64,000 nt of DNA, taken from NCBI GenBank assembly GCA_963514005.1, contig OY740788.1, forward strand, positions 88,474,001 to 88,538,000. The letters run 5' to 3'. Under the pieces are notes generated by a model that saw only the letters and a list, made by a program, of their open reading frames with translations, ran no database searches and had not been told where the DNA came from. Origin of the DNA: Raja brachyura. Lineage: Eukaryota. The first letter of the stretch is position 1, and each line of letters begins with the position of its first letter. Positions 25,508 through 32,398 of this stretch are shown here, piece after piece. The translations under genes and the position numbers were made by a program.

Positions 25508-25652
25508 AACAATCATATGAAAAGTCGTCTTTGAAAATCTTGGGCGCTACTGTAGCCTGTGTCCTCTTCATCCTCTTATTCAGCATCTTAGCAATAGCAG
25601 TGTGCTATATGAAAAAATGGGTGTGCTTTCAACACATATTTAAACCCGAAGG
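25508..25652 (+). CDS. IgSF receptor transmembrane exon
   Basis: ttttcag| acceptor and |gtgagt donor, phase 1-2. EQSYEKSSLK-ILGATVACVLFILLFSILAIAVCYM-KKWVCFQHIFKPE: an uncharged ~25-aa hydrophobic segment followed by a KK stop-transfer. Confidence 0.9.
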
Positions 25653-26134
25653 GTGAGTAAAATGTATTTTCACATCTTGCTTTAATATGATATTGAATTA
25701 AGCATGGTGGGCGCAGGCGTTGAATCCAGCAAAGACCGCAGGAAAGAGTCGTGGAACTTGGAAGTTTCATGGGATGGAACAGTTCTGGCACGGGTACAAA
25801 GGTAGGGTTGCTGCCTGACAGCGCCAGAGACACGGGTTCGATTCTGACTGTGGGTGCTGTCTGTTCAGAGTTTGTCTGTTCTCCCCGTGACTATAAAATG
25901 CTGTGACACCACATTTGTTTCTCGTGTCTTTTATCTTTGCACCACCTGTTGTACTTGTATCGGCTTCGATTGTATAGTATGATTTGACTGGATAGCATGC
26001 AAATAAAACTTCACTGTACCTCGGTACACATACGAACAATAAACCAAGACCAATGCAGTCTCGTTGTTGTTCTTCAGAGACATTCAACAAATATAAATAG
26101 TTCACTGACAGTGTGTTCTATATCATTTCGCTAG

Positions 26135-26178
26135 GAACTCTACTGAAGACCTGAACACAGTTTATTCCACAGTTACAG
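26135..26178 (+). CDS. IgSF receptor cytoplasmic exon 1 (ITSM TVYSTV)
   Basis: gctag| acceptor and |gtaaaa donor, 44 nt, phase 2-1; (G)NSTEDLNTVYSTVT. Confidence 0.8.
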
Positions 26179-26795
26179 GTAAAAAGTTAATTTCAGTGCT
26201 CATAGTGGGGATTGCTTCAAATGTTGGCTATGTTCAGTAATGATTCCAAATGTAAGAACATAAGAAACAGTCAAGAAAGTCGCCCATTGTTGCACCATTC
26301 TCAACTTCAACTATTCAACCTCTATGGCTTTTCAATTCCTTTAAACACACTCAACAAATTAGCTTCACAGTTCTCCGACAGAGAAATGCACATATTCAAA
26401 GCACTCTTCAAAGAAAATTCTTCACAACTGCGTCATGGTGCACTAACCATATCTGAGTGAACCTGTGGAATCTGTTGCCATGGATGGCAGTGGAGGCCAT
26501 GTCATTGGGTATTTTTAAATCGGGGATTGATAGGTTGTTGGTTAGTGAGGGTGCCAAAGTTACAGGGAGAGGATGGGATAATGGGGTTGGGAGGGAAATA
26601 TCGATCAGCCATGGTTTAATGGTGGAACAAACTTGATGGGCCAAATGGCCTAAATCTGCTCCTATATCTTAGATCAATAGGGACAATTGGAATACATATC
26701 TGCTCTCTATTAGATCTTGTATCTGAACTATCTTATTCAAGCACTCAAGGTCTCCATCAAGGCAACTAAAATAGAGTTTTGGTCGATGTTTGGGT

Positions 26796-27121
26796 CATAG
26801 AAACATAGAAATTAGGTGCAGGAATAGGCCATTCGGCCCTTCGAGCCTGCACCGCCATTCAATATGATCATGGCTGATCATCCAACTCAGTATCCCGTAC
26901 CTGCCTTCTCTCCATACCCTCTGATCCCCTTAGCCACAAGGGCCACATCTAACTCCCTCTTAAATATATCCAATGAACTGGCCTCAACTACCCTCTGTGG
27001 CAGAGAATTCCAGAGACCCACCACTCTCTGTGTGAAAAAATTTCTTCTCATCTCGGTCCTAAAGGATTTCCCCCTTATCCTTAAGCTGTGACCCCTTGTC
27101 CTGGACGTCCCCAACATCGGT
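26796..27121 (-). mobile_element. CR1 3' end fragment
   Basis: ORF 26887-27117 matches the C-terminus of CR1 ORF2, plus the 3' tail. Confidence 0.9.
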
Positions 27122-28124
27122 CATGATTATAGAGAGCAGATAGCCAACAGAAAGAGGTGAAGGGGCGGTGTGAGGCAGGGCAGGCAGTAATAGATAGAAA
27201 CAGAAGAAGTGGGGAAAGGGGCAGATGAGCCAAGTGGGAGCAGATGGTGGGAATAGAGGCTGAAAGTTACTGTGGAAACAAGAGATGCTGGAATCCTACA
27301 GATGTTGGAATCTGGAAAGTCAGAAGGTGATATGCGGAAACAATGGTCCAATAGTGCTTTTATTGTCACATTTGCGAAGTGCTAACACAATGAAATTATT
27401 TGTCATATAAACAGTCCAGTAGAATGTTGCCGATCCCTAATTAGCAAGTGTACAGATATAGTCTACTGGGCCCGCATGCAACAGGTGCCATCTAGTGGTG
27501 CTATTTTCAAAGTCCTCGCTCGAGTTCTGATGAGCAGTGCCTGTTCCAGGCAAGTCCCAGGCTGTTGGAGATCTCCAGCCATTTCCTACCTTCGACGCCA
27601 CGCTACCTGATCAGATTCCAGCATCTGCAGTCTCTGTGTCCATAAAATAGAGAGCAGCCTGCCACCAAGTACTGCTGCCTCTGCCCTCCTCCACTAAATG
27701 GACACAACATCAGTCTTAAACTAATTATTGGATATATATCAATTCTTGCAGCCTCTCGAAAGATGCCTGCTGTAAGTGACAAATTAATGGCAGAATTTTA
27801 GAAAGACCAACATTAACACACTCTCAAATTTTAATCCATTTGATAGTGGCTGAATTTAAATCTATGATAGTGAACTAAAGGGCATATGTCCATGAATTAA
27901 TTAAATGATAATCCTTTACATTCAATTGAGAAGTTTACGGATCCACCAAAAGGCAGCTTCTACAATACTGCACTGAAGCATAGGCCTACGCAGTTTGTCT
28001 TAACTCCCTATAAAGGGCCTGATCCACAGCCTGCAGACTCCAGAAGTAAGCCAGACGTCTAGCCTTTAAGACATATGTGAGCCTTGTCATGCCCCTGTCA
28101 AGAGTGAGAAACTCTTCATACAAA

Positions 28125-30682: not shown

Positions 30683-30803
30683 ACATATGTGTTCTGCAGA
30701 ATGTTGCAGCTATCTGAATGCACTGGATAAGGGATGGCAATAAGTTTGTATACTGCACTATGATTACATTTTGACAACTCAACAGATTCTTATTTTATTT
30801 CAG

Positions 30804-30847
30804 TTGAAACCAAGACCAATACAGAACCAGCCCCCAATGTCACTATG
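30804..30847 (+). CDS. IgSF receptor cytoplasmic exon 2
   Basis: tattttatttcag| acceptor and |gtaagt donor, 44 nt, phase 1-0; (V)ETKTNTEPAPNVTM. It exactly bridges the phases of the flanking exons. Confidence 0.8.
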
Positions 30848-31086
30848 GTAAGTACCAGACATAAATACAAACTGCTGGAGCAACTCGGTGGGTCAGGCAG
30901 CATATACGGAAAGAAATGGACAGGCGACATTTTGGCCCATGCCTTTAATTGAATGACATTACTTCCTTGTTCGACCTATACAAGCCATCTCAGGTTTACA
31001 AGTGTCCACCTTACTCCCTTACATATGAACCAGCTCCATAAATATCATTATATTCCAAGTCTTACGTACATGCATCACGTTCATAC

Positions 31087-32092
31087 CTGTGACTAGTGGT
31101 GAGCCACAGGGTTTGGTGCTGGGCCCGTTACTGTTTGTCATCTACAGCAATGATTTGGATGAGAACATACAAGGCATGATTAGCAAGTTTGCTGATGATA
31201 CAAAAGTTATTGTTTTGCAGATAGTGAGGATGGTTGTGAACGATTGCAGCAGGATCTGGATCGATTGGCCAGGTGGGCGGAGGAATGGGTGATGGAATTT
31301 AATACAGAGAAGTGTGAGGTGTTGCATTTTGGGACGTCAAACTAGGGCAGGACCTACACAGTAAATGGTAGGCCTCTGGGTAGTGTTGTAGAGCAGAGGG
31401 ATCTAGGAGTACAAGTGAATGGTGCCATGAAGGTCGAGTTGCAAGTAGATAAGGTGGTCAAAACGGCTGTTGGCACTTTGGCCTTCATCAGACAGAGTAT
31501 TGAGTACAGAAGTTGGGAGGTCATGTTGCAGTCAAGACGTTGGTGAGACCGCATTTAGAATATTGTGCTCAGTTCTGGGCACCATGTTATAGGAAAGATG
31601 TTGTCAAGCTTGAAAGTGTTCAGAAAAGATTAACAAGGATGTTCCCAGGACTAGAGAGTGTGAACTGTAGGGAGAGGTTGAGTAGGCTGGGTCTCTATTC
31701 CATGGAGCGTAGGAGGATGAGGGGAGATCTTATAGAAGTATATAAAACCATGAGAGGAATAGATCGGGTAGATGCACAGTCTTTTACCCAGAGTAGGGGA
31801 ATCGAGGACCAGACATAGGTTCAGGGTGAAGGGGAAACGATTTAATTGGAATCCAAGGGGTAACTTTTTCACACAGACGGTGGTGGGTGCATGGAACAAG
31901 CTGCCAGAGGAGGTAGTTGAGGCTGGGACAAGCCCATCGTTTAAGAAACAGTTGGACAGGTACATGGATAGGACAGGTTTGGATGGTTATGGACCAAGCG
32001 CAGGCAAGTGAGACTGGGGTAGATGGGACATTGTTGGCTGGTGTGGGTGAGTTGGGCTAAAGGGCCCGTTTCCACTGTATTACTCTATGACT
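31087..32092 (+). mobile_element. Degenerate 5'-truncated CR1 (RT C-terminus + 3' UTR)
   Basis: [26 protein letters not shown]; tail ctctatgactata. Confidence 0.88.
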
Positions 32093-32281
32093 ATAACTAG
32101 TTTGCTCCCTTTTCCCCTTTTGCTAATTGCTCTTTCTTATTCATCTTGTATATTTATGATGCCATTCGTTATAAACTGTGATGGTATGGAGTGATTTTGT
32201 GTATTTTCTGACTGATGAACAAACTCAGCTTATGGATTCAGCAGTCTCTTGTGCCATTTACATTCTGTTTTTCTGTTACAG

Positions 32282-32398
32282 TCGGCGGAATCGGAGATAT
32301 TCTATGCTGATATTCAGTTTGTACGACAGAATGCCAAAGCTCCAACCTTAGCAGTCAGCGAGGAGACAACTGAATATGCTGCCATCAAACGTGCATAG
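32282..32398 (+). CDS. IgSF receptor terminal exon with ITIM (IFYADI) and ITSM (TEYAAI)
   Basis: Polypyrimidine tract + ttacag| acceptor, phase 0; SAESEIFYADIQFVRQNAKAPTLAVSEETTEYAAIKRA-TAG. Confidence 0.9.
   Translation, partial: SAESEIFYADIQFVRQNAKAPTLAVSEETTEYAAIKRA

Follow-up and report, generated by a model that had tools for sequence, protein, structure and literature searches.

A predicted inhibitory receptor with tandem VJ-type domains and its ITAM-tailed paralogs in a skate genome

What kind of receptor carries the three tyrosine motifs encoded in a 64,000-nucleotide stretch of the Raja brachyura genome (assembly GCA_963514005.1, contig OY740788.1, positions 88,474,001 to 88,538,000 of the forward strand; here the window, G000:C8:88474001-88538000)? 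A sequence-only reading had drawn attention to a cytoplasmic tail in which immunoreceptor tyrosine-based switch (ITSM) and inhibitory (ITIM) motifs follow an uncharged transmembrane (TM) helix, and had proposed a checkpoint-like inhibitory or switch receptor. By anatomy, the predicted receptor belongs to the ITIM/ITSM-bearing type I class of the immunoglobulin superfamily. We propose, with a probability of roughly 0.7, that it is a type I receptor carrying in tandem as many as five pre-joined variable-joining (VJ) domains, and that it represents the inhibitory arm of a paired family of cartilaginous fishes. An ITIM/ITSM tail alone is ordinary, whereas a chondrichthyan-wide paired family of antibody-type VJ domains is unusual. 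The interest of the locus thus rests on the paired family and its link to sigma-2 light chains rather than on the tail; the sequence-only reading did not connect the tail to the sigma-2-like VJ ectodomain or to the paralogs with activation motifs (ITAMs), which bear most of that interest.

The exons of the predicted gene are listed in Table 1. The five V exons (12093-20913) are all of phase 1-1. Every one specifies a V-set domain (E 1e-14 to 2e-16), and in all five the J-like strand lies within the same exon as V; V2, V4 and V5 are mutually 97–99% identical. The TM exon and the three tail exons are separated by GT-AG introns and form a single frame without stops, and when the five V exons are joined to them, V1 through the stop amounts to 694 open codons. 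Exon junctions are predicted, on the basis of splice signals and of models of the gene elsewhere; the tail-junction sequences are identical in the predicted RefSeq models XP_055495050.1 (Leucoraja) and XP_078261638.1 (Rhinoraja), so the one-frame splicing of the tail assumed earlier holds at the level of prediction. A search for RNA over 25400-32700 listed none. Four contig sets of uncertain type, aligned to 20400-32800, were dominated by repeats; one 894-base contig among them ends at 32283, a single base into the last exon, but it comes from a run that is probably DNA and shows no listed exon joint, and it was set aside. An alternative TM donor at 25621 was rejected for its frameshift. Another, at 25623, would preserve the frame at a cost of 10 residues; homolog models agree with the 25653 donor instead. 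V5 may be spliced as a GC-AG intron or skipped, and skipping would leave the tail in frame because all V exons are of phase 1-1. A leader exon identical to that of the next inhibitory paralog sits 29 kb upstream of V1, beyond the window (L021:3048), and is likely the leader of the V1–V5 gene. Upstream of V1, at 11981-12092, the frame stays open and encodes hydrophobic residues that could form a leader without splicing, as an alternative; in Leucoraja isoform X1 (P0089) the leader is modelled in this way.

Table 1. Exons and related features of the predicted receptor gene in the window
Feature	Position	Strand	Remarks
V1 exon, outermost VJ-type Ig domain	12093..12443	+	End of split leader, V and J-like FGxG; V-set E 1.3e-14; complementarity-determining region (CDR) loops differ between paralogs
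V2 exon, VJ-type Ig domain	13362..13706	+	V-set match
V3 exon, VJ-type Ig domain	15547..15894	+	98.9% identity to V3 of ITAM-tailed paralog
V4 exon, recent V2 copy (97.7%)	18961..19305	+	Predicted structure, local distance difference test score (pLDDT) 95.5
3' remnant of V1-type exon	19635..19686	+	Relic of partial duplication, 12392-13702 to 19635-20909
V5 exon, V2 copy	20569..20913	+	GC donor versus GT in 4 paralogous exons
Stalk, uncharged TM helix (25537-25608), start of tail	25508..25652	+	Ends in phase 2, donor GTGAGT
Tail exon 1, proximal ITSM-like TVYSTV (26157-26174)	26135..26178	+	Phase 1
Tail exon 2, spacer without tyrosine	30804..30847	+	Phase 0
Last exon: ITIM IFYADI (32297-32314), ITSM TEYAAI (32369-32386), stop	32282..32398	+	Tyrosines 24 residues apart
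Leader exon of next inhibitory paralog	62575..62623	+	

The motifs TVYSTV, IFYADI and TEYAAI all lie where the sequence-only reading had placed them. The spliced tail has 82 residues and three tyrosines, and in just 11 of 100,000 shuffles of it did all three tyrosines fall in an ITIM or ITSM context; such hexamers are common in raw DNA, the six-frame background of the window holding 196 ITIM-like and 23 ITSM-like ones. Searching with V3 yielded 85 proteins; all of them are named from sharks or rays, 22 species in total, and skate proteins are closest (92–94%). Fourteen of these models lack a TM segment; the other 71, ITAM-bearing ones included, have no charged residue in the helix centre. The helix of the window gene is likewise free of R, K, D and E, but a feature shared with ITAM-bearing homologs is uninformative about the sign of the signal. 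Sorted by tail, the TM-bearing homologs comprise 34 of the window type (class A), 14 of mostly a related inhibitory type (class B), 21 with class C tails (below) and two without a tail. Class A contains 29 distinct tails, or 27 from 18 species once two truncated models are dropped; as these were picked by the middle YAD, their middle tyrosine is present by construction. The distal YxxI/V occurs in 27/27, with Thr at −2 in 25, and the ITIM-to-terminal-ITSM spacing is 23–24 residues throughout. Position +3 of the middle motif is hydrophobic in 24/27. Least conserved is the proximal motif, with a tyrosine in 22/27, a strict ITSM in 18/27, and Pro in place of Thr in a neighbouring paralog. Conservation across sharks and rays, proposed earlier as a check, is therefore seen for the distal pair and is patchy for the proximal site. 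A search with the tail alone gave 16 matches, every one an elasmobranch family member.

How might such a tail signal? PMC12151841 gives the PD-1 ITIM/ITSM consensus, with SHP-2 binding the ITSM through its C-SH2 and the ITIM through its N-SH2 domain, and the distal pair of the window gene fits this tandem. Together with the conservation of that pair, the match supports the inhibitory half of the earlier proposal, and the protein is likely an SHP-recruiting receptor as far as its motifs predict. The switch half fares less well. Glu at the position before the phosphotyrosine (pY-1) has been argued to make SAP switching unlikely, and a hydrophobic pY-1 tied to SAP binding (PMC12151841); TEYAAI has Glu there, and only the proximal motif has a hydrophobic residue, so that a SAP switch is possible at the proximal site only. 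A SLAM-type switch, in which SAP at the proximal TVYxxV activates in SAP-expressing cells and the distal pair inhibits elsewhere, would be compatible with an inhibitory receptor as an extra layer. We consider it unlikely. The proximal Thr at −2 and the hydrophobic pY-1 suit it (PMC12151841), in strict form in 18/27 tails, and in the bamboo shark an sh2d1a-like gene is a marker of one T-cell subset (PMC11372145); however, the proximal Tyr is lost in 5/27 tails and the Thr in 4 more, as well as in the adjoining paralog, and dedicated ITAM members already exist in the family.

The likeness of the tail raises the question of orthology or direct kinship to a checkpoint receptor already known, such as PD-1, SIRP-alpha, a CD33-related Siglec or BTLA. 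Some homologs are automatically named SIRP-alpha-like, and the Atlas feature neighbours include TIGIT-like, BTLA and G6b clusters at 0.94–0.96. PD-1 shares with the window gene the terminal ITIM and ITSM tandem and the Glu-Tyr-Ala core of the last motif, and cartilaginous-fish PD-1 also carries Ala at ITIM pY+1 (PMC12151841). However, a single extracellular V domain defines the PD-1/CD28 family (PMC11599192), whereas the window gene has five, plus a third tyrosine motif and a multigene cluster with ITAM partners. The shark PD-1 ortholog is a separate gene with one V and with neighbours other than those of the window cluster (PMC12151841). The nearest flanking genes that we found differ from the PD-1 synteny markers NGEF, ATG16L1, DGKD, SNED1 and BOK, which were not directly searched for. 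SIRP-alpha and the CD33-related Siglecs, themselves paired families, also have an ITIM followed by a terminal ITSM-like motif. SIRP ectodomains are a V followed by C1 domains, those of CD33-related Siglecs V plus C2, and those of SLAM receptors V-C2. By comparison, the window gene and its homologs are V-set only and match none of these architectures: the window gene has no C1 exon, and where homologs score for C1-set, the matches are weak and overlap V domains. The activating members of the family also differ from those of SIRP and Siglec in using an intrinsic ITAM rather than TM charge. By architecture, then, the window gene is not PD-1, SIRP, Siglec or SLAM, and the PD-1 and Siglec layout recognized earlier is limited to the tail. 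With V domains nearest to antibody V, direct kinship to a checkpoint receptor is very improbable and already contradicted by architecture.

The window gene is one of several. V matches span 88.18–88.67 Mb, with two further at 89.23 Mb (150 of 255 candidates scored). In this cluster of ∼0.5 Mb, of which 317 of 524 kb were examined, we found three genes of the inhibitory type alongside four TM exons of the ITAM-tailed one; the TM exon and last exon of the window gene each occur in three copies in the skate genome. All four class C TM exons are followed by a YEN exon. In two of their tails the ITAM (YxxL-x7-YxxL) is intact, a short intron dividing it between two exons after the first Tyr-Met; one has a stop inside the ITAM, and one tail was unseen. 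Among class C homologs, 16/21 show the ITAM pattern and 17/21 the YEN. V exons of the inhibitory and ITAM types are 96–99% identical. Clustered genes, near-identical ectodomains and opposite predicted tails together argue for paired receptors. Broken paralogs also occur: one activating-type gene has a stop inside its ITAM, and a minus-strand one has a frameshifted last V exon (L018:8275, L019:5601-6018).

Such debris, with the GC donor of V5 and the V1 remnant, could mean that the window gene is itself a duplicate in decay or wrongly assembled, from which no five-domain receptor is produced. Its structure is predicted from genomic DNA, and between copies the last exons are 98–99% and one V3 100% identical. 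We nevertheless find this quite unlikely: the frame is open from V1 to the stop, TM exons differ by 3–4% between copies, V5 could be skipped in frame, and relatives have models with 3–5 V domains and the same tail.

Where did the V domains come from? A family profile was run against 1.84 billion representative proteins, and the best 150 matches were examined. They comprised family members (including elephant shark P0226/P0240, P0152), then light chains at 95–123 bits per domain, then a drop to ≤65 bits. Sigma-2 genes scored 96–113 bits on the profile and lambda ≤74, and one light-chain match falls into the same 90% cluster as a GenBank sequence labelled Ig sigma-2. In the skate, loci on C29 and C47 (L041-L048) carry joined VJ exons followed by a C1 exon and cluster with named sigma-2 at 100/98. 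With the J segment left out, sigma-2 was top scorer for 9/9 family domains; the V2 core is 46% identical to sigma-2 versus 32% for the next class, and one shark V2 52% versus 34–37%. Cys-Trp (14) and Cys-Cys (73) spacing is common to 11/11 sigma-2 sequences and most V2/V3-type domains, and is found in some immunoglobulin heavy chains (IgH). All 50 best fold matches of the V4 model were antibody or T-cell receptor (TCR) V domains (Z 16.7–19.4, root-mean-square deviation 1.3–1.9 over 102–113 residues), with PD-1, SIRP and NKp30 absent from those 50, and the best 60 matches of a PDB sequence search were antibodies only. In a first tree (78 rows, 7 redundant rows omitted), 26/28 family domains grouped with sigma-2 at 81/88; in a second (34 of 85 cores, simpler model), all 11 family domains did so at 93/83. 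Outgroup labels, NITR-like included, were assigned by us and are unconfirmed. Approximately unbiased (AU) tests rejected light chains as one clade minus the family (0.029), family plus lambda (0.015) and family plus TCR-alpha-like (0.029). By sequence comparison, the nearest known relative of the family V domains is the sigma-2 light-chain V.

Like sigma-2, the family has a split leader, and like the skate sigma-2 genes examined it has V and J within one exon. The two differ in that sigma-2 continues from VJ into a constant (CL, C1) exon and lacks a TM segment, whereas the family has tandem V domains, a TM segment, a signalling tail and no C1. Sigma-2 CDR3s vary from 7 to 11 residues; those of the family are fixed at 6 from skate to elephant shark. 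Family domains are predicted to be heavily glycosylated, with a mean of 3.6 N-glycan sequons per domain versus 0.7 in sigma-2, and the J Phe is replaced in V2-type domains. The germline-joined sigma-2 cluster lies at G000:C29:1.5-2.4 Mb and C47:2.2-2.4 Mb, and four C29 copies examined have the J motif FSPG instead of FGxG. V2, V4 and V5 carry the heptamer CACAGTG behind their second Cys codon; it has no nonamer at 12 or 23 bases and results from Thr-Val codons, and it was rejected as a recombination signal.

The family reaches the elephant shark, and no bony-vertebrate member appeared among the best 150 profile matches. As it was found in chondrichthyans only, the simplest account is that it captured a joined sigma-2 exon; the likeliest source of the V exon, at about even odds, is a sigma-2 light-chain gene already joined in the germline of stem chondrichthyans. 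A joined sigma-2 pairs with neonatal IgM1gj (PMC4279169). The same inhibitory function could have another origin: the V domains may descend from a sister lineage of sigma-2 in which V and J were never split, as in UrIg or NKp30, or their likeness to sigma-2 may reflect slow evolution in both. Sigma-2 forms its own clade in both trees (100/98, 96/91), with the family beside it and not within it, CDR3 length is constant, and non-rearranging VJ genes occur in sharks (PMC12227049). In gar, coelacanth and turtles, however, sigma-2 is present with V and J joined (PMC5985310), and bony vertebrates yielded no family member in the profile search; nor are the genes flanking the family markers of the major histocompatibility complex (MHC) or of antigen-receptor complexes. 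We regard another origin as rather unlikely.

The nearest flanking genes found are a nicotinic receptor of alpha-2/4 type, in which alpha-2 and alpha-4 are not distinguishable, an unnamed DUF4772 gene and a PAQR gene. We take them to resemble the CHRNA2-ZNF395-PAQR8 region. An opioid-precursor synteny search gave one match, 60 Mb away on the same contig, which is uninformative.

The NITR of ray-finned fish are also a clustered, paired family in which a V domain with a J-like motif is combined with ITIM tails. The skate family differs in lacking an I-type domain and charged-TM activators, and NITR-like V (our label) is ∼25–33% identical to it, versus 32–52% for sigma-2. Teleost NILT and Xenopus and mammalian CEACAM are also clustered V receptors with ITIM/ITSM or intrinsic ITAM (PMC3022915, PMC5112662). 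The family V is by contrast an antigen-receptor-type VJ, and no NILT or CEACAM is named among the close matches, in searches that included no direct alignment. UrIg and UrIg2 of elasmobranchs likewise have a non-rearranging, single-exon VJ with a split leader (PMC12227049). UrIg2, however, has nine C1 domains and lies in an antigen-receptor complex, whereas the family is V-only with ITIM/ITSM or ITAM tails.

We then compared V1 among paralogs. Amino-acid changes across six V1 paralogs numbered 39.5 in 74 CDR-equivalent loop sites versus 19.5 in 192 others (p 5e-13), with loop borders fixed by rule, but after an alignment had been viewed. For nine V2-type exons, the nonsynonymous-to-synonymous rate ratio (dN/dS) was 0.24. 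Taken with established SHP-2/PD-1 and ITAM/Syk biology, from which the following steps are drawn, these features suggest how the receptor may work. A ligand would bind the CDR loops of V1. V2–V5 would act as glycosylated spacers that no longer pair like VH/VL, given the sequon excess and the loss of the J Phe in V2-type domains. Src-family kinases would phosphorylate the distal tyrosine pair, and the tandem SH2 domains of SHP-2 or SHP-1 would bridge ITIM and ITSM as on PD-1, damping activation. In the ITAM paralogs, YEN and YxxL-x7-YxxL would signal activation by way of Grb2 and Syk/ZAP-70, and these paralogs may be counter-receptors directed at pathogens that take advantage of the inhibitory form. 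As to the ligand class, a self marker mimicked by microbes is our guess, by analogy with other paired families.

Several points weigh against the inhibitory paired-receptor reading and its sigma-2 ancestry. The receptor is a prediction from genomic sequence, and its expression, ligand and phosphatase binding are likewise putative. A strict ITIM at the middle motif occurs in only 16/27 tails (8 have Met at −2 and 3 have Thr at +3). The sigma-2 margin is narrow for V1 (37% vs 34%) and V3 (41% vs 37%), neither branch uniting family and sigma-2 is strong, and AU tests did not reject family plus NITR-like (0.16), plus TCR-gamma-like (0.20) or plus IgH (0.13). We also count against it that the trees were built without UrIg, NKp30, PD-1, SIRP and bony-vertebrate sigma-2. 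Finally, dN/dS for the six V1 paralogs (1.2–1.4) does not exceed 1 significantly (p 0.18), and the loops of V1 are also where synonymous changes concentrate. We hold the full scenario, in which a germline-joined sigma-2 VJ exon was grafted onto signalling tails in a stem chondrichthyan and gave rise to an innate paired family, with PD-1-like inhibitory and ITAM activating members, still diversifying its CDR loops, only tentatively, somewhat short of an even chance.

Literature searches, with most subscription papers beyond reach, found no paper on this VJ paired-receptor family of sharks, rays and chimaeras, which is apparently and provisionally undescribed. Database names of its members are automatic and inconsistent. 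A term search of the accessible part of PMC3964593 and its supplement found no match to ITIM or ITSM. The bamboo shark family loci LOC122553155 and LOC122553190 have no rows among the marker-table rows listed in PMC11372145; LOC122553189, next to the latter in number, marks myeloid cells and hematopoietic stem cells there, but its family membership could not be shown, and it was set aside. For the oldest lineage that has adaptive immunity, the family puts names to candidate innate receptors, both activating and inhibitory. It is also relevant to whether VJ genes that do not rearrange are pre-RAG relics or branched off later from rearranged ones, which is testable here because sigma-2 is present on both sides of the split between sharks and bony fishes. 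If the proposal is true, an adaptive antigen-receptor domain would have been recycled into an innate checkpoint system, and the family would be a candidate for the little-known natural killer and myeloid receptor set of cartilaginous fish.

More divergent branches of the family are seen in sharks on the family chromosomes (P0244, P0111, P0116, P0142); one has an ITIM/ITSM-like tail in which the spacing is 25 residues, and another lacks a TM segment. In the skate, a single open frame of 1904 codons at G000:C8:89235640-89241351 (L001:9641 to L002:5352) fuses a V2-type domain to a long Asn/Gly/Ser-rich repeat region with 95 sequons; no TM exon was found near it, and bamboo shark P0118 has a similar fusion. 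Within the window, copies of what we take to be long interspersed nuclear element (LINE) retroelements lie at 1438-5460 (+) and 6218-8023 (−), with a 1025-codon, endonuclease/reverse-transcriptase-like frame at 2386-5460. Long AG-rich tandem repeats occupy 42800-48900, around an N stretch at 46679-46827.

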